In this document: positions 4,265 through 49,385 of the stretch, piece by piece
Layout: every line of letters begins with the position of its first letter
How positions within the stretch are numbered: position 1 is the first letter of the stretch
Virus record (IMG/VR): IMGVR_UViG_3300044497_000088
Location: 1-53,575 of that record
Length of the DNA: 53,575 nt
Reading direction: 5' to 3' (one strand)
From: a virus
Taxonomy: Duplodnaviria > Caudoviricetes
The notes under the pieces: generated by a model
What the model was told of the DNA's origin: nothing
What the model saw: only the letters and a program-made list of their open reading frames with translations
Databases searched by the model: none
Program-made: the position numbers and the translations under genes

Positions 4265-4449
4265 GCCTGCCTCCTCTCCGCCGCGTCCGCCCTGGCCGGT
4301 GGCAGTGACCGCGTCTCGCCGTCCCTGGCGCGCACCACCGTCAGGTGGGCCGAAGACCGGTCGATTATGCGGAACCACTTGGTCTTGCCCATGCTGCCCA
4401 TGAGCTTGAACTCGCCGGGTCGTCTTGGTGCCCTCATCTTAAGTGACAT
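4246..4449 (-). CDS. Small hypothetical protein
   Basis: Fills the gap after polA with short overlaps. Confidence 0.35.
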   Translation of the reverse strand: MSLKMRAPRRPGEFKLMGSMGKTKWFRIIDRSSAHLTVVRARDGETRSLPPARADAAERRQACESER

Positions 4450-6437
4450 AGCGGGTCCCCCTTGTTGATCTCGCTCGCGTCGTACCTGAGCGGCGCGCTC
4501 GCGCCGCCCTTCCTGACGTCGGTGCTCGCCTCGGCCCAGTGCTGCTCCGAGTAGCCGACCGCGCAGCGGAGCGGGACGCGGAGCGGCGTGTCGACGGTCT
4601 CGAGCAGCCAGCACAGCGCCGCCTTGGTCCGCGGGTCGCGCATGCACTCGGCCGGCCCCTCGAACACCACCTCGTCGTGCACGTTGCCGACCACCTCCAC
4701 CGGCGTGCCGAGGCAGGCGCGGGCGGCCGCGACGGTCCGCTCCTTCTGTATGTCGGCGGCCTCGCCCTGGCACAGGGTGTTGAACGCGTGGTGCGCCTTG
4801 TCGGCGGGCAACCTGCGGTACCGGCCGTGCACGTTCCGGACGTAGCCCCGGTCCGCGCACACCGCGGCGGCCCGCCGGCTGGTAGGCTTGAGCTCCGGCA
4901 GGGCCGCGTGGTAGCCGTCGTACACGGCCTCGCCGCGCTCGCGGCCGAGGCGCTCCAACGCGGACGCGCGTTGCGATGGGTCGAGTCGGCCCGCCGCGAC
5001 CGCCTCGTCCACGGCCCGGGCGACGTCGCCCACCACGTCGGTGTTGACCGACATGGCTTTGACCGCCTTCTTCTTGCCGCCGCCGTAGCCCATCATGAAG
5101 TTGAGCGTCTTGGCCGGGTCTCGGCCGATGCCGGCCGTCCTGGCCATCAGGTCGTGGAAGTCGGTGTCCGGGTCGGCGCGGTAGGCGTCGATGCACCGTT
5201 GGTTCTGGATGTAGTGCACGATCACGCGGAACTCGATCTGGCTCTGGTCCAGCGACAGGAACGCGTTCCCTCGCCGCGGGTGGATCAGCCGCTTGGCCAG
5301 CTTCGAGAGCTGCTGCATGTTCGGCGCGCGGCACGACATGCGGCCGGTCCGCACCATCTGGTTGAACGACGGGTGCAGTAGGTACGACCCGCCGGTCAGC
5401 AGGGCGAGTTCCTGGTACGGCCGTACGAACAGGCCGAGCAGCTGCGTGAGCTTGCGCGCCTCGCGGACCAGGGCGACGACGTCGCGCGGCGCGTCCGGGT
5501 GGAGCGCGTACAGCGCCAAGGCGTGCTTGTCGAAGGACGGGTTGCCGGCCGGGTTGCCGTCGTCGTCCTCCTCGGTCCAGCCGAGCACCGGCAGGCCGTA
5601 CTGGTTGATGAGCAGGTCGAAGAGCTGGTCGGGGCTGGACGGGTTGACCGACCGGCCGGTGAGCCGGTGCAGCTCGGCGTCGATGTCGAGCAGCCGCTGC
5701 GAGTGCTGGACCTCCGCCACCATCAGCTCGACCGGGTCGACCGACATGCCGCTGCGCTCCATCCGCAGGAGCACCGACGTCAGGTCCACCTCCATCGCGG
5801 CGACGCGGCGGCACTCCTCGGGCGTGCGCGCGTCTAGGTAGCCGGCGAGCCTGCGCACCGTCATGACGTCCTGGCAGGCGTACGGGGCCATGACTGACGG
5901 CGGGACCGATCCGTAGTCCTTGGACTCGCCTAGCCACCGCCTGAGCTCGGCCTCGTGGTGCGATATGTCCTCGCCGAGCCAGTCGCGGCTGAGCGCCCCG
6001 AGGTCGTACCCGCCGCGGCCGAACCCCCGGTCGGAGTCGAGCACCTTGGCCGCGGTGAGCGTGCACCTCAGCGTGGTGCCGCACGGCCAGTCCGGCAGCC
6101 AGCCCATGTCGCAGGCGGAGACGTGGGCGTCGTACTTGACGTTGTGGTTGGTCCACCTGCTGGCCCCGCCGCAGACGTCCGCCCACCACGCCCGGACCGC
6201 GTCGACCGGCAGGTTCGGCCCCCCGCGGTGGCGGACCGGCACGTACCACGCCCCGGGCGCGTCGTCGGCAGTGACCGCCACGCCGGCCGCCCAGCAGTTG
6301 TGCCACGGGTCGAGCGCGTCCAGCCGGTCGTCGAAGGACGTCGTCTCGAAGTCGGCGTACAGGTCGGCCACGCAGTCGAGGTCGGGGAGCTCGTCCACCG
6401 TCTCGACCAGGCAGCCGCCGCCGGGGAACTCTATCAT
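4434..6437 (-). CDS. polA: Family A DNA polymerase with 3'-5' exonuclease domain
   Basis: Exonuclease motifs DFETT, HNVKYD, YACQD; motif A LDQSQIEFR; motif B RDPAKTLNFMMGYG; motif C VHDE. Confidence 0.95.
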   Translation of the reverse strand: MIEFPGGGCLVETVDELPDLDCVADLYADFETTSFDDRLDALDPWHNCWAAGVAVTADDAPGAWYVPVRHRGGPNLPVDAVRAWWADVCGGASRWTNHNVKYDAHVSACDMGWLPDWPCGTTLRCTLTAAKVLDSDRGFGRGGYDLGALSRDWLGEDISHHEAELRRWLGESKDYGSVPPSVMAPYACQDVMTVRRLAGYLDARTPEECRRVAAMEVDLTSVLLRMERSGMSVDPVELMVAEVQHSQRLLDIDAELHRLTGRSVNPSSPDQLFDLLINQYGLPVLGWTEEDDDGNPAGNPSFDKHALALYALHPDAPRDVVALVREARKLTQLLGLFVRPYQELALLTGGSYLLHPSFNQMVRTGRMSCRAPNMQQLSKLAKRLIHPRRGNAFLSLDQSQIEFRVIVHYIQNQRCIDAYRADPDTDFHDLMARTAGIGRDPAKTLNFMMGYGGGKKKAVKAMSVNTDVVGDVARAVDEAVAAGRLDPSQRASALERLGRERGEAVYDGYHAALPELKPTSRRAAAVCADRGYVRNVHGRYRRLPADKAHHAFNTLCQGEAADIQKERTVAAARACLGTPVEVVGNVHDEVVFEGPAECMRDPRTKAALCWLLETVDTPLRVPLRCAVGYSEQHWAEASTDVRKGGASAPLRYDASEINKGDPLCHLR

Positions 6438-10031: not shown

Positions 10032-12887
10032 CTAGAACTCTGCCTCGGGTATGAAGTCAGGCCGCTCCGGCATGGAGCGGCTCGCCGCGACCGACCGCAG
10101 CATGTCTATGAACGGCCCAGATTTCCTGTACCCGCCGCCGTCCCGGCGCAGGGCGTGCTTGCGCACGAGCAGCGACAGCGACTGGCTCGCCATGACGCGG
10201 TCCCAGCCGCACCAGTCCATCAGGTCCTGCTGCTCCACCTTGTCGCTCCGGAGCATGGACTCGACGAACTCGTACGGGAACGGCATTGCCGCGAGCATCG
10301 AGCGTATCGCCGACTGGTCGAGCAGCTGCGTCCCGGCCCGCTGCGCGGCCGTGAACTCCGCGTACCCGCAGGCCCTGGACGAGTAGTGTCGCCGGAGGAA
10401 CGCCGCCGCGGCCTCCACGTGACAGGGCCGGACGTCGAGCGACCGCATGTCCTGGGACGTGCTGAACGTCCGGCAGGCGAGCGCGGCGGCCAGCCTCGCG
10501 AGCTTGTACCGCATCGACCCGCCGTCCACGATCGGCACCGCGTCGCTGTACTCGGCCGACATCTCGGTGGCGGTCGCGTTGCACAGCGACTCGACGTCGG
10601 CCGCGAACAGGCACTGCTCCGGCGTCCTCGTCCACGCCCACAGCACCAGCCGCCTGCACAGGTCGGCCGGATGCCGCTGGCGGCCGTTCTCCGGCCACGG
10701 GGCGTTGATCACCGACGGGTCGACGTCGGCGTCCGCGACGACGTACACCCAGTCGAACCGCCGCAGGTCCTCGAGCCCGCCCATGAGCTCCTTGGCCGCG
10801 TCCACGCCGTACGAGTAGCTCGCGACTTTGCGGCCGTCCGAGCGCGGGTTGCTGACGCCGAGCAGCCGGGTCCTGGCGTGCGTCTGGCGCTTCTCTATCT
10901 TGGTTATCTGGGCGACGCCGCTCGACCGCATGTCGGTGAGGCTGCCGAGCACCTCGACCCGCGTGCCCTTCATCTCCTCGAGCGTGACGTGCCGCTTGTC
11001 GTGCGTCGGGATGACGCCCCACTGGATGATCCACCGCGTCCCCATCTGGGCGCACCCGCCGAGCAAGCCGGCCACGGACGCGTTCTTGCACTCGAACTTC
11101 TCTCCCAGCCCGTAGTGCCTCCTCAGGCCGGCCGCCACCTCGGACTTGCCGTTCGACGAGTCGCCGACGACCAGCGCCTCCGCCCAGCCCTTGACCACCC
11201 GGCCGGCGTACGTCAGCAGCAGCGGGCTGTGCCACGTCAGGTCCATGGCGAGGTGCATGTCGCGGCGCATCCGGATGCGGGTGACGTGCCGCTCGAGGTC
11301 GGCGTACAGCCCGTCCAGCCGCTCCTCCACGCCCGCCGCGTCCCATCGCTCCGGCCTGAACGCGGCCAGCGGCTCGAGCTCCTCGTCGGTCGGGGAGTAG
11401 GTCGATAGCGCGTCCTGGCACTGCCTGTACGACGAGACCAGCAGCGTGGACTGCTGCGTCTTGGGGTGGGGCAGCATGCGGCCGGTGAACTCGTACGGCT
11501 CGTTGAGCTCGAGGCCCTCGCCGATCGCCACCGCCGGCTGCACCCGGTGGTCGCTCGCCCTGCTGGTGAGCTCGAGCGACGGCGCGACGCGAGCGTCCTC
11601 GGCGTTGTAGTGGCTGACCGCCTCGAAGTCGAACTGCCGGCACTGCCTCGGCACGCCGACCGCCCCCATGACGGCGTCGCGCAGCCGCGCCCGGTCGGAC
11701 GTGACCGCCTCGAGCACGGCCGGCGACTCGGCCGGCACGGTGAACCGCCCGTCGGTCGAGGGCCACACCGGGCAGAGCGAGCAGAACTTCTCCGACTTGT
11801 CGCACTTGGCGTCGACGTCCCGCGGCACGTAGTAAGGGGCCGTGTCCATCGCCGTGACCACGCCGCGGACGGTCACCCTCCGGCCGGCGTGCCTCGCGTT
11901 GACCGCCTCGGAGAGGTGCATCACCACCGGGTCGACCAGCCCGGACAGGCCGGCCGCCGGCATCACCCACGGCTCGCACGCGCCCATCAACGCCCACAGG
12001 TCGCCGCCGCCCGCCACGAAGTCGTTGACGTCCCCCTTGGGGTGGGCCGCGAGGTCGAGCGGCAGCACCAGCTCGAACAGCTCGGCGGCGAGCGGGCGCA
12101 GGGCGACCAGGTTCTTCAGGGCCGCCTTGCGCCCGTGGTCGTCGACGTCGCCGCAGACGTACACGCCCTTGCCGCCGAGCTGGCGCAGCATCTCGACCGG
12201 TATCAGTTTCTCGCCGATGGTCGGCGTCACGCACCCGACGCCGTGCGGGTTGAGCTCCCTCGCGCCGACGATGGCCTTCATCTCGCCGCCGACCAAGACG
12301 ACCGTGCCGTACCTGAGCTGCTCGGCCGGGTACCACCTGGCCTGGCCGCGGCCGCGCATGTTCCGCATCTTGTCCGCGCCGGCCGCGCCGGGCAGGTACC
12401 TGCGGACGTTGACCCAGTCGCCGCGCTCGTTCGGTACCGGTATCGTCACGCGGCCCTGGTCCTCGCCGAGCCGGTAGTACGCTATGTCGGCGTCGGTGAG
12501 GGCGCGGTCGCGGAGGGCCTTCAGCAGCGGGCCGGCCTCCCATATCTTGCCGTGCCACCGCTCGACCACCGACGGCTCGACTATCCGCACGTCGTCGAGG
12601 TCGTACCGCTGCGAGAGCTCCTCTAGTATCACGGACCGCGGCTGCCTCGCCGCGCCGGACAGCAGCTCTACCAGGTCGCCGGACCGCATGCAGCCGGCGG
12701 CGTGGCAGTTGAAGACGCGCTTGCTGAGGCTGACCGAGCAGGACGGGCTCTGGTCGTCGTGGAACGGGCAGCGGACCTTGACCTCGTCGTCGCCCGCCCA
12801 GACGTGCTTGAGCTGGTAGCGCTCGAGCTCGGCGAGCACGCTTATCTCGGTGGGCCTCGTCGCCATGTGGGCTCGCGGTCGGTCCAT
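10032..12887 (-). CDS. Primase (CHC2 Zn finger + Toprim) fused to an MCM-like AAA+ helicase
   Basis: CPFHDD...CHAAGC; GE, DVD and DVND Toprim motifs; GDSSNGKS, ASVAGL, TLEE, ARTRLLGVSNP, LRRFD follow the MCM motif order. Confidence 0.85.
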   Translation of the reverse strand: MDRPRAHMATRPTEISVLAELERYQLKHVWAGDDEVKVRCPFHDDQSPSCSVSLSKRVFNCHAAGCMRSGDLVELLSGAARQPRSVILEELSQRYDLDDVRIVEPSVVERWHGKIWEAGPLLKALRDRALTDADIAYYRLGEDQGRVTIPVPNERGDWVNVRRYLPGAAGADKMRNMRGRGQARWYPAEQLRYGTVVLVGGEMKAIVGARELNPHGVGCVTPTIGEKLIPVEMLRQLGGKGVYVCGDVDDHGRKAALKNLVALRPLAAELFELVLPLDLAAHPKGDVNDFVAGGGDLWALMGACEPWVMPAAGLSGLVDPVVMHLSEAVNARHAGRRVTVRGVVTAMDTAPYYVPRDVDAKCDKSEKFCSLCPVWPSTDGRFTVPAESPAVLEAVTSDRARLRDAVMGAVGVPRQCRQFDFEAVSHYNAEDARVAPSLELTSRASDHRVQPAVAIGEGLELNEPYEFTGRMLPHPKTQQSTLLVSSYRQCQDALSTYSPTDEELEPLAAFRPERWDAAGVEERLDGLYADLERHVTRIRMRRDMHLAMDLTWHSPLLLTYAGRVVKGWAEALVVGDSSNGKSEVAAGLRRHYGLGEKFECKNASVAGLLGGCAQMGTRWIIQWGVIPTHDKRHVTLEEMKGTRVEVLGSLTDMRSSGVAQITKIEKRQTHARTRLLGVSNPRSDGRKVASYSYGVDAAKELMGGLEDLRRFDWVYVVADADVDPSVINAPWPENGRQRHPADLCRRLVLWAWTRTPEQCLFAADVESLCNATATEMSAEYSDAVPIVDGGSMRYKLARLAAALACRTFSTSQDMRSLDVRPCHVEAAAAFLRRHYSSRACGYAEFTAAQRAGTQLLDQSAIRSMLAAMPFPYEFVESMLRSDKVEQQDLMDWCGWDRVMASQSLSLLVRKHALRRDGGGYRKSGPFIDMLRSVAASRSMPERPDFIPEAEF

Positions 12888-12929: not shown

Positions 12930-13003
12930 AGCAGGACGGAGGAGTCGAACCTCACCTCCCAGGATATTGCAAACTGGGGCTCTGCCGTTTAGCTACGTCC
13001 CGC
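12930..13003 (-). tRNA. tRNA-Cys(GCA)-like gene with atypical 8/4 fold
   Basis: GCGGGACG/CGTCCTGC acceptor stem; TAGCT..GG..AGC D arm; GAGG-TTCGACT-CCTC T arm; loop TTGCAAT; discriminator T. Confidence 0.7.
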
Positions 13004-14914: not shown

Positions 14915-15328
14915 CTATCCCCTCGCCACGAACCCCTGCCGTTGGGCGTCGAAGAACAGCAAGCGCGGCGGCCGGCCGTACTCGTGGGTCACCGCGCACG
15001 CGACGGTGACGACCGGGACGACGCTGCCGGCCACCACCAGCGAGTCGAGCGACGGGTCGTACCCGTGCCCGCGCAGCCGGCGCAGGGCCTCGCGCACGAA
15101 GTCGTCCGACCAGATGCTCGGCCGCCGCTCCCCGTCGGGGAACACGGTCACGAGTGCGCCGTGCTCGGCCGCTCGCCGGCAGTCCTTGTCCGGCCGCAGC
15201 AGCAAGAAGCAGCGCGGCTCCACGCGCACGTCGAGGCCTTGGACGGTCGGTGAGATCCGGACTCGCGTCACAGTCCCATCGAAGTCCAGCGACTTACCAT
15301 TGTTGAAAGTAGTCTCATCAGTCATCAA
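14915..15328 (-). CDS. Hypothetical protein
   Basis: Overlaps the helicase stop; clean ORF. Confidence 0.55.
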   Translation of the reverse strand: MMTDETTFNNGKSLDFDGTVTRVRISPTVQGLDVRVEPRCFLLLRPDKDCRRAAEHGALVTVFPDGERRPSIWSDDFVREALRRLRGHGYDPSLDSLVVAGSVVPVVTVACAVTHEYGRPPRLLFFDAQRQGFVARG

Positions 15329-17295
15329 TCCCTCTCCCTCTTCTTGACTAGTAGTCCGGCCAGGATGGTCCCGAGTATCTCGCGCACGTCGGAGACCTCC
15401 ATGGCGAGCAACTTCTTCTCGCCGACCCTCACGCGTATGTCCTCGTCGATCGACTCGGGGACGACCAGGTCGGTCTCCCGCACCTGGACCCGCGTGCCGC
15501 GGCGATGGTTGCGCGAGCCGCTCTGGTCGCGCTTGATGAACGACCAGTCGACCGCGTAGTATATGTGGTGGTTGCAGTCGGTCGTCACGCCGTCACCCTC
15601 GTGCGGCGGGTAGCCGAGCAGGTTCAGCCCGGTTCCGCCCGCCCCCTGGTTCCCGAGGAACACGCGGCACTCCGGCTCGCAGTTGAACTGTCGCTCAGCC
15701 TCCTCGCGGGCCTCCTCGGTCGTCTCGCCCCAGTAGGTGACGTGCCGTATTCCCTCCGCGGTCAGCCGCTCGCTCACCTGCCGGATGGTCGGCACGAAGC
15801 AGGACCACACGATGGTCTTCTCGTCCGGCCCCTTCTCCCTGAGGCACTCGACGAGCGTCTCGAGTTTCGGGCACTCCGGGAAGTACTCCAGCCGCGCCTC
15901 GCGCAGGACCTCGCCGGTGGCCTCGTCGATCACGGCGTCCCACTTGATGAAGCCGCAGGTTATCTGCGCCAGCCGCAGGAGCTGCGTCAGCACGTTCTGT
16001 ATGGTTATCGCCTTGTTGCCGCTCCTGTCGAGCTGGTCCTCGACCGAGTAGGCCAGCTCCCTGGCGAGCGAGTCGTACGCGTCCTGCTGGGCCGTCGACA
16101 TCTCGGCCTCCATCACGTCGAACACCTTGTCCGGGAGCCACGGGAGGGCCTCCTTCTTGGTGACTATGAACGCCGTCCGCGTCAGCCGCTCCTTCATGAA
16201 CGGCAAGTTCTGTATCCCGACTAGCTTGGCGTAGCCGTCGCCGGTCTGGTCGAACACGCCGTAGAAGTCCTTGAACGCTTTCCACGACTGGAAGCCGCTG
16301 CCGCCCTCGGACAGGAACTCGAAAAGCGCGTACAGGTCGAGCGGCGTGTTGCTGATCGGCGTGCCGGTGAGGCACATTCGCCGCCGGCACTTGTCGCGCA
16401 GCTTGCGCGTGTACTGCGACCGGCTGGTCATGGGCCGCTTCGCGTAGTGGGCCTCGTCGAGCACCCCGAGGTCCCAGTCGACGTGCTCGAGGAAGTCCCA
16501 CGTCCCCTTGAGCCCCTCGTAGGACATGACGCAGACGGTGTACTCGCAGCCCGGCTCGTCGACCAGCGCCTCGATGAGCTGGCCGGCCCGGGCGACCGCC
16601 CCGCCGCGGATGGCGCAGACCTTGCCCGGCCTCGTGCAGAACCGCTGGAACTCGCGGCACCAGTTGAGACGGACGGCTTTAGGGCACACGACGATCGTCC
16701 GGTGAGCTCGGCCGAACTCGGCCCACACCCGCTGGCACTCGTTCATGACTCTGGCGACCACGACCGGCGTCTTGCCGGTCCCCTGCTCCATGAACAGGTT
16801 GTAGCCCTCGGACCGCATCGACATCCAGAGCGCGGCCTGCTGGTACGGCTCGAGCGGTAGCTCCGGGTGCTGCTCGAGCTCCGCCGCGCCTGGCGGGAGC
16901 AGGCCGACCGACTTGAAGAGCGCGTAGGCCTCCGCCACCTGGTCCTGCGCGGTGGTGCCGAGCAGGAGGAGGTCCATCATGGACTTGGCCGCGGGGTCGA
17001 GCTCCAGCTGGTCGCGGGGCCAGACGGCGTCGACGACCACGGCCGTGTAGTCGGTAGCCGCGAGGAGCCACTCCTCGTCATAGGTCGACTTGAGCTGACG
17101 TCGCTCGGGGACTCGCTCGAGCCACGTAGACCGGGCGGCAGCCGAGGGCCACTCGCGGTGGCCGTTGACCCGCGCGGCGGAGACCTTCGCCCGGAAGTGC
17201 CGGCCGTCCGGCTCGAGGGAGAGGCTGAGCCGGTCGTGGGGCTTGAGCTTCACCGGCTCGAGCAAGCCGGCGGTCGCGTCGGAGAGGGCTCTCAT
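15325..17295 (-). CDS. SNF2-family DEAH helicase
   Basis: EQGTGKT, LDEAH, LTGTP, QLLRLAQI, GGTGLNL, QSGSRNHRRG. Confidence 0.93.
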   Translation of the reverse strand: MRALSDATAGLLEPVKLKPHDRLSLSLEPDGRHFRAKVSAARVNGHREWPSAAARSTWLERVPERRQLKSTYDEEWLLAATDYTAVVVDAVWPRDQLELDPAAKSMMDLLLLGTTAQDQVAEAYALFKSVGLLPPGAAELEQHPELPLEPYQQAALWMSMRSEGYNLFMEQGTGKTPVVVARVMNECQRVWAEFGRAHRTIVVCPKAVRLNWCREFQRFCTRPGKVCAIRGGAVARAGQLIEALVDEPGCEYTVCVMSYEGLKGTWDFLEHVDWDLGVLDEAHYAKRPMTSRSQYTRKLRDKCRRRMCLTGTPISNTPLDLYALFEFLSEGGSGFQSWKAFKDFYGVFDQTGDGYAKLVGIQNLPFMKERLTRTAFIVTKKEALPWLPDKVFDVMEAEMSTAQQDAYDSLARELAYSVEDQLDRSGNKAITIQNVLTQLLRLAQITCGFIKWDAVIDEATGEVLREARLEYFPECPKLETLVECLREKGPDEKTIVWSCFVPTIRQVSERLTAEGIRHVTYWGETTEEAREEAERQFNCEPECRVFLGNQGAGGTGLNLLGYPPHEGDGVTTDCNHHIYYAVDWSFIKRDQSGSRNHRRGTRVQVRETDLVVPESIDEDIRVRVGEKKLLAMEVSDVREILGTILAGLLVKKRERD

Positions 17296-17345
17296 GTCTG
17301 GTCGTCCTGTGCCATGTGACTGTCGAGAAGTATCGAAGAGTTGGC

Positions 17346-17374
17346 ATTATACACCGCAGGACCTCCGGCGTAAA
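17346..17374 (-). promoter_or_regulatory. Leftward sigma70-type promoter of the replication operon
   Basis: TTTACG-N17-TATAAT on the minus strand. Confidence 0.75.
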
Positions 17375-17511
17375 CGGGGCTAGCGACTCAGGCGCAGATT
17401 TTCGCGACCGGCCGACGCGCAGTATATATAGTAGAAGTCGCATCGGAGGTCGTCTATGCGATCGGGCTAGAATTATTCTCGAAATAATCTCCCAAAAGGC
17501 CGATAATGCCG

Positions 17512-17540
17512 TTCCCGCGGCGAATATACTAGTGTAGAAT
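17512..17540 (+). promoter_or_regulatory. Rightward early promoter
   Basis: TTCCCG-N17-TAGAAT in the divergent intergenic region. Confidence 0.55.
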
Positions 17541-17604
17541 GGACACATCGCACCGAGGATCACTCGGACGCGACTGACGGAAACATGGCACAAAGGAAGA
17601 ACAG

Positions 17605-17874
17605 ATGATCGTATGCGGAAACAGCGTGAACGCGAAGAGCTTCTTCGACGCCGCGGCGGGCTCCCTCGCGCAGCTCTACGGGCGGTGGCTCGACGAGAAG
17701 GATTACGAGGACATCGAGGACTATATGTCCGCCCTCCACGAGAAGGCGATGGCGGCGGGCGTCGCGTTGCAGAACATGACGAAGCGACCGTTCGGCGTCG
17801 TGTTCACTTGCGACGGTCGGACGTACCACATGACGATCAAGAAGAACACGGCTCAATACAAGCGAATAGCGTGA
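17605..17874 (+). CDS. Early hypothetical protein
   Basis: AGGA RBS; stop abuts hammerhead 1. Confidence 0.7.
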   Translation: MIVCGNSVNAKSFFDAAAGSLAQLYGRWLDEKDYEDIEDYMSALHEKAMAAGVALQNMTKRPFGVVFTCDGRTYHMTIKKNTAQYKRIA

Positions 17875-17932
17875 GGTCGAAACGCGCGTTGACTCGCGCG
17901 TCCACGGTTATTTCGGCCGTGCTGACGAGACC
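17875..17932 (+). ncRNA. Type II hammerhead ribozyme 1 (predicted cut after C17902)
   Basis: GGTC-GAAA-CGCGCG[ttgact]CGCGCG-TC-CACGG[loop]CCGTG-CTGACGA-GACC. Confidence 0.92.
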
Positions 17933-17963
17933 ACATGGCGACATGGCACGAAGGAAAGAAAAG

Positions 17964-18263
17964 ATGATGAAATACTTATTAGTCCGAGACCACGCGACCG
18001 AGGACTTCGAGCAACACGACTCGTTGCCCCGAGAGGGAGACGCGGTCTACGCGCTCATCGACGGGACGTGGTGGTACGCCACCGACGACGTCGGGAGCGA
18101 GCGGTTCCTCGTCATCGACTCGCGCGGTGGCTGTCGCACGACGGACCGTCAGGACGATTGCGACTATAACGAAGAGCTCTGCTTCATGTGGGACGAGCCA
18201 AACTACTGCCGTTGCTATGCGCTCGATGAGCCGAGCGTCGTATCGACCGTGGCGGGGCGGTGA
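17964..18263 (+). CDS. Early hypothetical protein (99 aa)
   Basis: AAGGA RBS; lies between hammerheads 1 and 2. Confidence 0.7.
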   Translation: MMKYLLVRDHATEDFEQHDSLPREGDAVYALIDGTWWYATDDVGSERFLVIDSRGGCRTTDRQDDCDYNEELCFMWDEPNYCRCYALDEPSVVSTVAGR

Positions 18264-18320
18264 GGTCGAAACGCGGAGCGATCCGCGTCTGACGGTAATT
18301 CAACCGTCACTGAAGAGACC
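18264..18320 (+). ncRNA. Type II hammerhead ribozyme 2 (predicted cut after C18289)
   Basis: GGTC-GAAA-CGCGGA[gcga]TCCGCG-TC-TGACGGT[loop]ACCGTCA-CTGAAGA-GACC. Confidence 0.92.
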
Positions 18321-18340
18321 AACATTTTGGAGAGACGGAC

Positions 18341-18601
18341 ATGGCGCAGTCACACATCGAGGTGCGGGTCGGAGGGGCGGTTTTCGGGTGCGAGACGGTC
18401 GCGGAGTTGCGACGGGCCCTCGACCTCGCCGAGCAGCTAGGAAAACGGGTCGTGGTCGCGAAGGCCGCGAAGCGCAGCAAGCGGCTGACCGCCGAGGCGG
18501 CGGACGGGCTGACCGAGGCTCAGCGGCTCGCGCGGAACGAGGCCAGCCGCAAGGCGAAGGCCGCCGCGCGGAAGGCGAGCAAGCGGAAGGGGTGCAAGTA
18601 A
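18341..18601 (+). CDS. Basic early hypothetical protein
   Basis: GGAG RBS; Lys/Arg-rich C-terminus. Confidence 0.65.
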   Translation: MAQSHIEVRVGGAVFGCETVAELRRALDLAEQLGKRVVVAKAAKRSKRLTAEAADGLTEAQRLARNEASRKAKAAARKASKRKGCK

Positions 18602-18604
18602 CTC

Positions 18605-18805
18605 ATGGGCAGCTACCGAGACGACGAGGACCTCTACATGGACCGGAAGAAGGAGACGTTGACGATCGAGGTCGAGGTCGACGAGAGCGTCGAAGGGCAA
18701 GCGGCCCTCGACGACATCTCAGCGGCCGTCCACGACTTCGTGAACGACGAGCTCAACGAGGATTTCGGCGAGTCGGCCGCGATCACGATCATCGAGAGCG
18801 AGTAG
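18605..18805 (+). CDS. Small, very acidic early protein (possible DNA mimic or host-protein inhibitor)
   Basis: 66 aa, strongly D/E-rich; stop abuts hammerhead 3. Confidence 0.6.
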   Translation: MGSYRDDEDLYMDRKKETLTIEVEVDESVEGQAALDDISAAVHDFVNDELNEDFGESAAITIIESE

Positions 18806-18875
18806 GCCGAAACGCGGGAGCACACCGTGAGGTGGAGACCCGCGTCCGCGACTAGACGGTCGCGCTGACGAGGCC
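18805..18875 (+). ncRNA. Type II hammerhead ribozyme 3 (predicted cut after C18846)
   Basis: GGCC-GAAA-CGCGGG[...CACC gtga GGTG...]CCCGCG-TC-CGCGAC[loop]GTCGCG-CTGACGA-GGCC. Confidence 0.92.
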
Positions 18876-18913
18876 AGCGAGCACTCACCACACGTAGAGA
18901 GAGAACCGAGACC

Positions 18914-19420
18914 ATGAAGACCATCCCCAACGCGACCGCGCCCGTGAAGGCCCCGCCGGCGAAGGCGGCCGGAGCCGGAGCCGCGAAGAAGGTCAAGAGC
19001 GGCGAGCGCGGACCGACCGTGTTCCACCCCGCGCTCGAGGCCAAGGCCGTCGACGGCGTCCTGAAGCCGACCAAGAAATTGCAGGCGTGGCCGGCAGACT
19101 ACAAGACCACGCAGCACAAGCCGCTGTCGTCGGCGCACTTCGAGGACCCGGCCGTGTACTACAACGGCAAGGCCGACCGCCTCCAGCGAGTGGTCGACAA
19201 GCTGCGGCAGGACGCGCTCCAGGCCAAGACGCTCGGCGGCGTCAAGGAGAAGGGCACCGCGAAGAAGATGCTCCAGCTCCAGAAGCGGCTCGACGACCTC
19301 AAGACGGAGCTGTCCGGCAAGGGCGTCGACGTCGAGGCCATGCTCAAGCTGCTCGCGGCCAAGCAGGTCGAGGCGGCCGCACCGGCGGCGAGCGCGCTGC
19401 CAGCCGCGTCGCAGGCGTAG
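18914..19420 (+). CDS. Lys/Ala-rich early protein with coiled coil
   Basis: Clean ORF with strongly biased codon usage. Confidence 0.7.
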   Translation: MKTIPNATAPVKAPPAKAAGAGAAKKVKSGERGPTVFHPALEAKAVDGVLKPTKKLQAWPADYKTTQHKPLSSAHFEDPAVYYNGKADRLQRVVDKLRQDALQAKTLGGVKEKGTAKKMLQLQKRLDDLKTELSGKGVDVEAMLKLLAAKQVEAAAPAASALPAASQA

Positions 19421-19470
19421 ACCCTCTGACGAGACGAGGTCGAAACCGCGGCGGGAGACCGCCGCGAGAG
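19421..19470 (+). ncRNA. Incomplete hammerhead core lacking a cis cleavage triplet
   Basis: CTGACGA-GAC[gag]GTC-GAAA-C-CGCGGCGG[gaga]CCGCCGCG, with no NUH or stem I partner after stem III. Confidence 0.5.
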
Positions 19471-19485
19471 CATGCCGAACGCCTA

Positions 19486-19539
19486 GGTCGAAACCGGGGA
19501 CGGCCCCGGTCTGGCGGTAGGTCCGCCACTGACGAGACC
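19486..19539 (+). ncRNA. Type II hammerhead ribozyme 4 (predicted cut after C19511)
   Basis: GGTC-GAAA-CCGGGG[acgg]CCCCGG-TC-TGGCGG[taggt]CCGCCA-CTGACGA-GACC. Confidence 0.92.
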
Positions 19540-19561
19540 ACATGGCACGAGGAGAACGACG

Positions 19562-19774
19562 ATGAAGATCAAGAGGACGCGGGTGCGCATCACGCTGGAG
19601 ACGAGGCGGCAGGCGGCCGACCTGGAGGTCGCGCTGACAGAGGCGGGCTTCGAGACGAACGACGACTGCGACGCGAGCGAGGTGATGATGGACCTCGACC
19701 CCACCGAGGGCAAGACGCCGGGCGACCAGCTCGCGGAATTGGCGCGCGCCCTCGACGAGGCCCGGGTGTCCTGA
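19562..19774 (+). CDS. Small acidic early protein
   Basis: GAGGAG RBS after hammerhead 4. Confidence 0.65.
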   Translation: MKIKRTRVRITLETRRQAADLEVALTEAGFETNDDCDASEVMMDLDPTEGKTPGDQLAELARALDEARVS

Positions 19775-19812: not shown

Positions 19813-19873
19813 CGCGAAAATCCGCGCACGGGCCGATCGCCTGGCTCGCGTATGGGGCGAGCCGCGGTATAAT
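19813..19873 (+). promoter_or_regulatory. Promoter with upstream CGCGAAAATCCGCGC box
   Basis: TATAAT at 19868-19873; box and spacing shared with the leftward promoter. Confidence 0.6.
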
Positions 19874-19918
19874 GCACACGCGTGAACGATTGACACATGG
19901 CACATAGGGAGACGACGA

Positions 19919-35465: not shown

Positions 35466-35843
35466 ATGAGCGTTGAGCCAGAGGCCGCTACCGAGGCGAC
35501 CGACGCCACAGCCGCCGCGAAAGCGGCGAAAGCTGCGGCGAATGTCTCGCTCCCAGCCGACACCACGGGGGAGCAAGATCGCAACACCGCCGGCCGCCGC
35601 GGCATAAACCTCATGTGGGAGTCGACGCAGGCGGTCATCGCGCTGGCCGTCATCTTCACCGGGATGGCGACGGCGTCCATCCTGGCGCTGCGGACCGACG
35701 CGAGCGACGCCAGCAAGTCGGTGGCCATCACGGCGTTCCTGCTCATAAGCAACACTGTGTTCCTCGTGATCGGGTTCTACTTCGGGCGGACCAACCACGA
35801 GCGCCAGGGCGGCGTGGTCAACGGTCAGGGGGGGTCGCGATGA
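35466..35843 (+). CDS. Two-TM holin-like membrane protein
   Basis: Two hydrophobic helices ending VIGFYFG. Confidence 0.55.
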   Translation: MSVEPEAATEATDATAAAKAAKAAANVSLPADTTGEQDRNTAGRRGINLMWESTQAVIALAVIFTGMATASILALRTDASDASKSVAITAFLLISNTVFLVIGFYFGRTNHERQGGVVNGQGGSR

Positions 35844-37135
35844 CGATGCTCACGCCGGCCTGGGCGCCACTCAGGTACCACCCGGACCAGGCCAGGCTGT
35901 GGAGGTCGACCGTGCGCTTCAAGGCCGTGGTCGCCGGCCGCGGCAGCGGCAAGACCGAGCTCAGTCGCCGCAAGGTGGTCCGGCACCTGCCGCTGGTCAA
36001 GCCGTGGGCGAGTCCGATGTACTTCTACGCGCTCCCGACGCGCGACCAGGCCAAGCGCGTGGCGTGGCCGGTGCTCAAAGCCCTGGTCCCGCCGTCGTGG
36101 CTGGCCCGCAACGGGATCAGCGAGAGCGAGCTCACCATCACGACCGTGTTCGGCAGCACGCTGCACCTCTTGGGCATGGACAAGCCGGCCCGCGCGGAGG
36201 GCGTCCAGTGGGACGGCGGGATAGTGGACGAGTGCTGCGACCAGCGCCCGGGCCTGTTCGACCTCACGCTGCGGCCGGCCCTGTCGCACAAGACAGGGTG
36301 GTGCGACCGCATCGGGGTGCCGAAGAGGGCCGGCCCCGGCGCGCAGGAGTTCAAGGCGTTCTTCGAGCGCGGGCTCAGCGGCTCCGACCCCGAGGTGGAA
36401 TCGTACTCGTGGCCGTCGTCCGACATACTCACGGCGGCGGAGATAGAGTCGGCCAGGAGGCAGCTCGACGAGAAGGACTACAACGAGCAGTACTGCGCCT
36501 CGTGGGAGACTGTCGGCGGGGCCGTGTTCTACGCCTTCAGCGAGGTGCTCAACGTCGACTCGACGCTGGCCTACAGGAAGGACACCCCGCTGCTGGTCGG
36601 CTGCGACTTCAACGTGGACCCGATGGCGTGGGTGTTCTGCCAGGCGGCCGGTCGAGAGCTGCACGTCCTCGACGAGCTGTGGATGCGGAACACGAACACC
36701 GAGGCGGCGCTCGCGGAGGTCAAGCGCCGGTACGGCGACCACCCCGCCGGGCTGTTCTTCTTCGGGGACGCCACGGGGAAGGCGCGGAAGACGGCCGCGT
36801 CGACGAGCGACTACGTCCAGATCAGGAACTTCGTCGGGCTCGGGGCCGACAGGCGGGTGTTCTTCCCGGACGCCAACCCGGCGAGGCACGACCGGTTCGC
36901 CGCGTGCAACGCCATGTTCAAGAACGCGGCTGACGAGAGGAGGTGCCGGGTGCACCCGCGGTGCAGGAACCTCGTCAAGGACCTGCTCACCAGGGCCTAC
37001 GAGCCTGGGACCAGCGAGCCGGACGACCACGGCGACGTGTCGCACGCCAGCGACGCTCTCGGGTACCTGGTCAACTGGCTGTACCCGCTGGCCGTCGCCG
37101 CGTCCGCGACCCCGCCGAACGTGCCGCTCCTGTGA
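35840..37135 (+). CDS. terL: Terminase large subunit
   Basis: AGRGSGKT Walker A, IVDE Walker B, GCDFNVDP and HASDALGY nuclease motifs. Confidence 0.93.
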   Translation: MTMLTPAWAPLRYHPDQARLWRSTVRFKAVVAGRGSGKTELSRRKVVRHLPLVKPWASPMYFYALPTRDQAKRVAWPVLKALVPPSWLARNGISESELTITTVFGSTLHLLGMDKPARAEGVQWDGGIVDECCDQRPGLFDLTLRPALSHKTGWCDRIGVPKRAGPGAQEFKAFFERGLSGSDPEVESYSWPSSDILTAAEIESARRQLDEKDYNEQYCASWETVGGAVFYAFSEVLNVDSTLAYRKDTPLLVGCDFNVDPMAWVFCQAAGRELHVLDELWMRNTNTEAALAEVKRRYGDHPAGLFFFGDATGKARKTAASTSDYVQIRNFVGLGADRRVFFPDANPARHDRFAACNAMFKNAADERRCRVHPRCRNLVKDLLTRAYEPGTSEPDDHGDVSHASDALGYLVNWLYPLAVAASATPPNVPLL

Positions 37136-48320: not shown

Positions 48321-49385
48321 ATGCTCGACGTCTTCAAGACCGACGCCTACGGGCTGGTCTCCCTGACCAAGGCCCTGGACAAGCTGCCGTACGCCCCGAG
48401 CCTGCTCGGCGAGATGGGGCTCTTCACCGAGAAGGGCATCACCACCACGACGGTGGTCATCGAGGAGCGGCACGGCAAGCTGTCCCTCGTCCAGTCCGCG
48501 GCGAGGGGCTCCATGCCGCGCGTGCAGTCGACCAGGCCTAGGAAGACCAGGGCGTTCCCGGTGAACTACCTGCCGGAGAACGATACGGTCATGGCCGACG
48601 AGGTCCAGGGCGTGCGGAAGTTCGGCAGCGAGGACGAGACCGAGGGCGTCGCCACGGTCGTCAACGACAAGCTCACCCGCCTCAAGCAGAACATGGACGC
48701 CACGCACGAGTGGCACCGCGTCGGCGCGGTCATGGGCGTCACCTACGACGCGGACGGCACCACGCAGCTCTTCGACTGGTACGACGAGTTCGGCCTGACG
48801 CAGGTCAACGTCGACTTCGACTTCTCGGCCGGCACCCTCAACGTGCTCAACATGGCCTCGAGCGTCCAGCGCATAATCGAGGACGCGCTCGGGGCCGGGA
48901 CGTACAAGGGGATCGTGGCCATCTGCGGCAACGCGTTCTTCGAGAGCCTCATCGCCCACGCGTCGGTCAAGGAGGCGTTCAAGGTCTGGCAGACCGGCAA
49001 CGGCAACAAGTCGGAGGTGTTCTCTATGATGGACACCGCCACGAAGCGCAAGGGCTTCGAGTTCGGAGGCGTCACCTGGGTGAACTACCGCGGCTACATC
49101 GGCACGACGCCGTTCATCCCGACCGACGAGTGCCGCTTCGTCCCGGTTGGCGTGCCGGACCTGTTCATGACCAACTACGCCCCGGCGCCGTTCATCGAGA
49201 CGGTCAACACCGTCGGCAAGAAGTGGTACGCCAAGCAGCGGGTGATGGACTTCGACGTCGGAGTCGAGATGCACGTCTGCTCCTGCCCGCTGAGCCTGTG
49301 CACGCGGCCGGGCGTCATCGTCAAGGGCACCAAGACCGGCGCGGTGGCCGGCCTGTACGTCATGCCGGCCGGCCCGCTGGCCTAG
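48321..49385 (+). CDS. Major capsid protein (lambda gpE-like family)
   Basis: DVFKTDAY..SLTKA, ADEVQGVRKFGSE, FEFGGVTW..YRG, ETVNTVG, PLSLCTRP. Confidence 0.92.
   Translation: MLDVFKTDAYGLVSLTKALDKLPYAPSLLGEMGLFTEKGITTTTVVIEERHGKLSLVQSAARGSMPRVQSTRPRKTRAFPVNYLPENDTVMADEVQGVRKFGSEDETEGVATVVNDKLTRLKQNMDATHEWHRVGAVMGVTYDADGTTQLFDWYDEFGLTQVNVDFDFSAGTLNVLNMASSVQRIIEDALGAGTYKGIVAICGNAFFESLIAHASVKEAFKVWQTGNGNKSEVFSMMDTATKRKGFEFGGVTWVNYRGYIGTTPFIPTDECRFVPVGVPDLFMTNYAPAPFIETVNTVGKKWYAKQRVMDFDVGVEMHVCSCPLSLCTRPGVIVKGTKTGAVAGLYVMPAGPLA

Follow-up and report, generated by a model that had tools for sequence, protein, structure and literature searches.

Four type II hammerhead ribozymes, here called HH1 to HH4, lie within 1.7 kb between plus-strand open reading frames (ORFs) of an uncultivated sediment phage. 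The window analysed is the whole IMG/VR virus record (IMGVR_UViG_3300044497_000088) of 53,575 bp, which is rated complete, carries direct terminal repeats and has a G+C content of 66%. The genes around the ribozymes are numbered 1 to 6 below. From their sequence and computed structure HH1 to HH4 are genuine type II hammerheads, for which self-cleavage is predicted. The best-supported reading of the array, to which we assign a probability of about 0.8, is that the ribozymes would split a polycistronic message into gene-sized pieces.

The four elements were found with a strict descriptor, which consists of GAAA, a hairpin closed by A15.1-U16.1, H17, a second hairpin, CTGANGA and a stem II of at least 3 bp. 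Applied to both strands of the window, it returned exactly four matches, all on the plus strand: HH1 at 17875-17932, HH2 at 18264-18320, HH3 at 18805-18875 and HH4 at 19486-19539. In 200 Markov-shuffled windows it gave no match, and a relaxed descriptor gave one match in 100 shuffles. The predicted cuts follow C17902 in HH1, C18289 in HH2, C18846 in HH3 and C19511 in HH4. An initial annotation of this DNA had named the same four elements and the same four cut sites, so that the descriptor output reproduces it in both respects.

In all four elements the parts follow each other in the order GGYC, GAAA, hairpin, TC, hairpin, CTGANGA, GRCC. This corresponds to the type II topology, i. e. stem II 5' strand, GAAA, hairpin III, UC, hairpin I, CUGANGA and stem II 3' strand, with stems I and III closed by loops and stem II open. 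The hammerhead core (C3 U4 G5 A6 N7 G8 A9, G12 A13 A14, A15.1-U16.1, H17) is present in each of them. Stems III, I and II measure 7, 7 and 4 bp in HH1, HH2 and HH3, and 7, 6 and 4 bp in HH4. Stem II is GGUC/GACC in HH1, HH2 and HH4; HH3 differs, with GGCC/GGCC, and has an extended stem III. Folded alone, each of the four takes the hammerhead three-way junction both as its minimum free energy (MFE) structure and as its centroid structure, with MFE z-scores of -3.44 for HH2 and -3.02 for HH3.

Rfam was not usable as a detector here and we therefore built our own covariance model, R1. It was trained on 45 type II hammerheads from other IMG/VR phages, each 52 nt long and free of gaps. The window was excluded from the model to avoid circularity, and the whole window was then scanned with the filters off. 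HH1, HH2, HH3 and HH4 scored 46.1, 49.3, 26.2 and 57.6 bits, respectively, with E-values between 6e-16 and 7e-6. The fifth-best match reached 14.8 bits, and the remainder was noise.

A search of viral contigs with the phage helicase led to one locus, L122, whose helicase is 65% identical, and a gene 5 alignment search of viral contigs led to L122 again. Downstream of a matching divergent promoter region this relative carries three type II hammerheads (R1 scores 59, 57.9 and 36 bits), two of them directly 5' of genes homologous to gene 3 (49% identical) and gene 5 (59% identical). The contig stops inside gene 5, and any counterpart of HH4 would lie beyond its end. The core is identical in the hammerheads of L122 and of the window, and the invariant positions are intact in all seven copies; the conservation of the core in relatives, which the initial annotation had put forward as a check, is thus found in L122. 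In contrast to the cores, stems I and III differ in sequence between the two phages and yet pair. In an alignment of the seven copies, which was fitted to the model and so favours pairing, pairing holds in 98.2% of 109 cells, and compensatory changes on both sides occur in 12 of 16 pairs. None of 500 shuffles was as high, and slid partners pair at 23-43%. The G+C content of L122 is 49%, as against 65-66% in the window, and this strong difference makes the compensatory changes unusually clear. Descriptor, folds and covariation together confirm that stems I and III vary between copies but always pair. The same holds for the identity of the elements as type II hammerheads, for which the R1 scores of 26-58 bits, the junction fold of all four and the conservation in L122 speak alike.

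A co-occurring strain was seen in run X10. Over the 2.4 kb compared it differs by 32 substitutions and 4 indels, and the sole change inside the hammerheads falls in loop I of HH2; stems and cores are unchanged. The same strain has in-frame indels in genes 2 and 4 (+9, -9 and +27 nt at 18073, 18239 and 18661). A contig of run X10 that seemed to skip 17760-19669 was disregarded, as it has only 21 letters on one side, together with 34 foreign letters.

The ribozymes are closely fitted to the genes between which they stand. The TGA stop of gene 1 (17605-17874, plus strand; 89 amino acids) adjoins HH1, and that of gene 2 (17964-18263, plus strand; 99 amino acids, an open translation) adjoins HH2. 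Gene 3 (18341-18601, plus strand) encodes 86 amino acids with a basic C-terminus and is followed by gene 4 (18605-18805, plus strand; 66 amino acids, very acidic), whose TAG stop shares its G with HH3 as the first base of the ribozyme. HH4 starts 65 nt past the stop of gene 5 (18914-19420, plus strand; 168 amino acids, no known family). Gene 6 (19562-19774, plus strand; 70 amino acids, also of no known family) is the first gene of the piece 3' of HH4. Hence three of the four hammerheads begin at the upstream stop codon, as had been annotated. All four ribozymes are sense to the ORFs that flank them, as had been annotated for the messenger RNA (mRNA); these ORFs have a G+C content at third codon positions (GC3) of 0.87-0.96, gene 1 having 0.87.

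We propose the following course of events. As RNA polymerase passes each gap, the local hairpins III and I would form first; the 4-bp stem II (A-GGUC...GACC-A) would then close the three-way junction, and the RNA would cut itself co-transcriptionally after the C of GUC. The products would be a promoter-proximal piece with gene 1, three middle pieces that hold gene 2 (387 nt), genes 3 and 4 (557 nt) and gene 5 (665 nt), and a downstream piece beginning with gene 6. The three lengths had been given before and follow by arithmetic from the predicted cut sites. Each upstream product would keep its own stop codon and have the stem III hairpin at its 3' end, which would carry a 2',3'-cyclic phosphate, whereas each downstream product would have a 5'-OH, next to it the stem I hairpin and then a leader of 20-40 nt with a ribosome-binding site; these ends, too, had been annotated and follow from the type II topology. 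By this, the stability and translation of neighbouring cistrons could be uncoupled without host RNases. General knowledge of RNA decay suggests that the hairpin ends stabilise the pieces.

A single polycistronic transcript is plausible. Upstream of gene 1, inside the divergent intergenic region 17296-17604, there is one sigma-70-like promoter candidate on the plus strand (17479-17507; TCGAAA-17-GATAAT, a 9/12 match to the consensus only), and the consensus scan found no terminator-like site on the plus strand within the array. The promoter candidate is paired with a leftward sigma-70-like site at 17374-17346 (10/12); two such sites were found as against 0.4 expected. The operon may be an early one, judging by its position and gene content.

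Several results weigh against the proposed processing of the message. The first concerns Rfam. All four elements lie under the gathering score of RF02276 (37 bits). The search with the Rfam hammerhead models that the initial annotation had suggested aligned HH1 over its full length with RF02276 (Hammerhead_II) at 23 bits, but only when 91 nt were scanned alone; HH2, HH3, HH4 and the three copies of L122 went unreported. A search of the whole record listed HH1 as the only copy. At the gathering threshold, the scan of the whole window gave the tRNA gene at 12931-13002 (minus strand) and no hammerhead; an E-value scan of 3.5 kb reported no hammerhead either, and a scan of five related loci, the three L122 hammerheads included, gave nothing at E <= 0.05.

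The second point is the pseudoknot between loop I and the 3' tail. According to Perreault et al. 2011 (PMC3088659), such a pseudoknot, of at least 4 pairs, is present in most but not all type II hammerheads, and it was critical for fast cleavage in the variants assayed there. In HH1 to HH4 it is no better than chance (shuffle fraction 0.32-1.0): the best complementarities comprise 4, 5, 3 and 2 pairs, and shuffled tails equal them in 97%, 32%, 64% and 100% of cases, respectively. A pairing of loop I with the 3' tail or the ribosome-binding site, which had been seen by eye in HH1 and HH2, was rejected on the same grounds. Third, equilibrium folding in long contexts gives stem II a low predicted probability. 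With 150-nt flanks on each side it is only 0.008 in HH1 and HH2 and 0.56 in HH3, and for HH4 it is 0.31-0.37 in contexts of 220 and 400 nt.

Finally, neither the more distant relatives nor the RNA libraries add support. A gene 5 alignment search of metagenome contigs gave five distant loci, L124-L128, at 30-40% identity, and none of them has a hammerhead within 3.5 kb of the gene 5 homologue; a gene 5 query of metagenome contigs found none among 595 candidate stretches. The survey of related phages that had been proposed thus yielded three copies in L122 and none near the five distant homologues. This indicates that the ribozymes are a feature of the lineage and not required for gene 5. The sole match in RNA libraries is one metatranscriptome contig of 151 nt (17561-17711), for which DNA carry-over is possible; it speaks neither for nor against cleavage, as contigs cannot show ends.

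A pattern scan of IMG/VR with the stem II and core of the array gave at least 120 stretches. The relaxed descriptor was then used on 122 sources (121 loci and the window), and among the matches listed there are 175 type II hammerheads in 115 of them. Counted per locus and strand, these matches fall singly in 78 cases, in twos in 26 and in threes in 5; larger arrays have 4 copies in four loci (the window included), 5 in one and 9 in one. The array of the window is thus of middling size among the listed IMG/VR arrays, which resemble it in subclass and layout. With the strict descriptor, one locus (L022, 2150-4801, plus strand) has seven copies in 2.7 kb.

From these loci we define a compact subclass by a 4-bp stem II that is preceded by A (position -1) and usually followed by A (+1), by a stem I of some 6 bp and by a loop I that begins with U. 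Among the matches listed, 156 of 157 unique copies have an A immediately 5' of stem II, and 121 of 157 have one immediately 3' of it; both positions were outside the search pattern. The first base of loop I (column 31) is U in all 45 aligned copies. HH1 to HH4 belong to this subclass, with A at -1 and +1 in all four and R1 scores of 26-58 bits, and in each of them loop I starts with U. A reasonable guess is that a tertiary A/U contact between the A before stem II and the U of loop I takes the place of the pseudoknot. Such a subclass without the pseudoknot is missed by standard Rfam thresholds in the window and in L122, and phage annotations probably under-count ribozymes of this kind. Possibly, the compact subclass is already contained in the supplements of Perreault et al. 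2011.

The conserved A before stem II also explains the placement of the stop codons, since this one base can at the same time end a TGA or TAA stop or stand in the middle of a TAG; in the TAG case the G of the stop opens stem II. In 125 of the 175 listed copies, the stop of an upstream open frame of at least 35 codons lies no more than 5 nt from where the ribozyme starts. In the others the stop is further off (29), one base inside the ribozyme (1) or absent (20).

Between gene 5 and HH4 there is a further hammerhead-like fragment (19426-19470, plus strand), which is the R1 match of 14.8 bits mentioned above. It consists of a CTGACGA core half, a closed stem II of 3 bp, a GGTCGAAAC half and a G+C hairpin of 8 bp whose loop is GAGA, and an 11-nt string is common to it and the 5' edge of HH4. 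With a closed stem II its core is the only one in the window, as against 0.19 expected, and no other candidate for a type I or type III hammerhead was found there. A fifth ribozyme was ruled out because the fragment has neither the cleavage-site U16.1/H17 nor a stem I. A role as a regulator of HH4 that competes for stem II was also considered and rejected, as it is not robust to the length of the context folded. The fragment may be a relic or a recombination scar.

Among other explanations of the array, the one that survives best is that the hammerheads are mainly the boundaries of exchangeable gene cassettes. In this case their conserved halves would give short homology, genes would be swapped between phages, and cleavage would be secondary or would insulate the newcomers. 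The comparison with L122 fits this, as the hammerhead positions are kept while genes 1 and 2 are unlike genes A and B of L122 (blastp E > 0.1) and gene 4 is extra in the window. It is also in line with the finding in PMC3088659 that the identity of the flanked genes is not constant. The fragment at 19426-19470, in which a 3' half motif is fused to a 5' half motif, has a make-up that a recombination scar could have. Yet the comparison rests on one relative, and a tblastn search with 12 cassette proteins against the other loci (about 1.1 Mb; the two loci of L122 and L001 excluded) matched no hammerhead-bearing locus. The only queries with a match were gene 5 and D, its counterpart in L122, and the matches were confined to the hammerhead-free loci L124-L128. 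Hence no shared mobile cassettes were seen among the loci searched. Moreover, the intact catalytic cores of all seven copies argue for selection on catalysis itself. We therefore regard exchange as the main role as unlikely, although it is compatible with cleavage of the message. The same low likelihood applies to the more specific proposal that the hammerheads double as integron-like cassette joints, with the halves A-GGUCGAAAC and CUGANGAGACC-A as swap points. Were this true, small early genes would be swapped, each newcomer bringing its own RNA insulation, and 19426-19470 would be the scar of such an exchange.

It is somewhat harder to believe that cleavage is conditional, i. e. that a terminating ribosome holds stem II open, or that HH4 folds alternatively with the upstream fragment, in which the 5' strand of stem II is present once more. 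A stop codon does abut or overlap three of the four hammerheads, as it comes close to the start of most listed IMG/VR copies, and in a 125-nt context the distal GGUC pairs with the 3' strand of HH4 with a probability of 0.51. However, the sharing of the stop codon has a simpler explanation: the A before stem II is almost invariant in the listed unique copies and is reused by compact genomes. The alternative pairing at HH4 falls to 0.00 in contexts of 220 and 400 nt, and no ligand-binding or switch element is present. Hence we consider regulated cleavage quite improbable.

It is very improbable that the excised pieces are circularised by a hammerhead that is rebuilt around each ORF and ligates the ends into a circular mRNA. 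Such rebuilding would draw on the common stem II, which is GGUC/GACC in three of the four window copies and two of the three L122 copies, and on stems I and III, which in type II hammerheads should be self-contained hairpins. Against this, GGUC/GACC is the very pattern searched for in IMG/VR and occurs in at least 120 stretches; it is thus widespread among unrelated phages and characterises the subclass. HH3 breaks the pattern, and Perreault et al. (PMC3088659) sought circular or spliced products and found none. Just as improbable is the idea that the elements are inactive relics, or plain hairpins that serve as RNA stabilisers or terminators and merely resemble hammerheads: for all the scores below the Rfam cut-off, the pseudoknots no better than chance and the one clearly degenerate fragment nearby (19426-19470), the invariant core is intact in all four window copies and all three L122 copies despite very different base composition, the stems have diverged by compensatory changes, and none of the four hammerheads is followed by a U-run.

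The proposed processing of a polycistronic message by the ribozymes also has to be seen in the setting of the genome. The record encodes a helicase, a primase, a DNA polymerase, a terminase and a major head protein. A leftward replication block comprises the DNA polymerase (4434-6437), a primase-like gene (10032-12887) and the helicase (15325-17295); the tRNA gene at 12931-13002 (minus strand; 35.1 bits with Rfam) also lies within it. The divergent intergenic region 17296-17604 separates it from a rightward block, whose first genes, from 17605 on, are small and belong to no known family and which runs on to the terminase (35615-37135) and the major head protein (48321-49385). The hammerhead array lies at the very start of the rightward block, directly after the divergent region.

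Genes 1-6 had no match in Pfam and PHROGs searches. The products of genes 4 and 6 are both small and strongly acidic, and their composition is, we presume, like that of DNA-mimic anti-restriction proteins. The ATG of gene 2 at 17964 is preceded by a ribosome-binding stretch of the GGAAAG type. A leader motif, ACATGGCAC, together with a purine-rich ribosome-binding stretch, occurs on the plus strand at 17583-17597, 17941-17955, 19540-19554 and 19895-19909, ahead of genes 1, 2 and 6 and of the gene after gene 6; at two of these places it comes straight after a ribozyme, HH1 and HH4. The window has 4 matches to ACATGGCAC, a number reached in none of 100 shuffles. A variant of it was seen by eye ahead of the leftward helicase gene (minus strand, near 17306-17322). 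The motif could serve as a translational leader or as a site at which a protein binds. Within 19840-19909 (plus strand) a TATAAT box (19868-19873), whose -35 region is poor, precedes the copy at 19895. This region may hold a second promoter that closes the hammerhead-punctuated unit; it was not called by the consensus scan.

Processing of this kind has a well-known counterpart in phage T7, whose polycistronic early RNA is cut by host RNase III at intercistronic hairpins into stable gene-length mRNAs. There a host protein is the enzyme and the end chemistry is different, whereas in the array described here the RNA would cut itself. Cleavage of type II hammerheads in vivo was found for three copies in Desulfovibrio vulgaris by Olzog et al. 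2021 (PMC8782182) with cyPhyRNA-seq, which captured 2',3'-cyclic-phosphate and 5'-OH ends from cellular RNA. In that study the type II hammerheads lie near hypothetical or phage-like genes, as they do here, and two copies are about 300 nt apart. Unlike the four-copy operon array, however, the D. vulgaris copies are chromosomal and distributed, three in number, over two loci. In a 2019 review (PMC6765202) the processing idea is repeated and the role of bacterial and phage hammerheads is said to still need defining work.

The closest known systems are those of Perreault et al. 2011 (PMC3088659), who reported the first natural type II hammerheads. They noted that in prophages, among them those of Clostridium scindens, Azorhizobium caulinodans and Agrobacterium tumefaciens, a single gene or a short run of genes is often flanked by several hammerheads. 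They proposed that the ribozymes cut long phage transcripts down to mRNAs of gene length. Three tandem arrangements cleave in vitro and one in vivo. The novelty claimed in the initial annotation, according to which only single type II hammerheads were on record in phage contexts, therefore does not hold. Like these clusters, the array has several sense hammerheads, type II among them, in intercistronic gaps of one phage unit. Unlike the prophage clusters, it belongs to the complete record of a free virus that carries terminal repeats, and all four copies are of one compact type II subclass with an A/A-capped 4-bp stem II and without the pseudoknot. They share the core and the permutation (open stem II) with the RF02276 consensus, but the latter combines a short stem II with a 3'-tail pseudoknot, which the array copies do not have.

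The layout of the array has thus been known in phages since 2011, and the array is a clean but ordinary example of it that leaves the existing picture of how such arrays work unchanged. Compact and complete, it contains no other ribozyme types, and it has a relative in which compensatory evolution is clear. This makes it a convenient test case for the question whether ribozyme punctuation alters the stability or translation of single cistrons.

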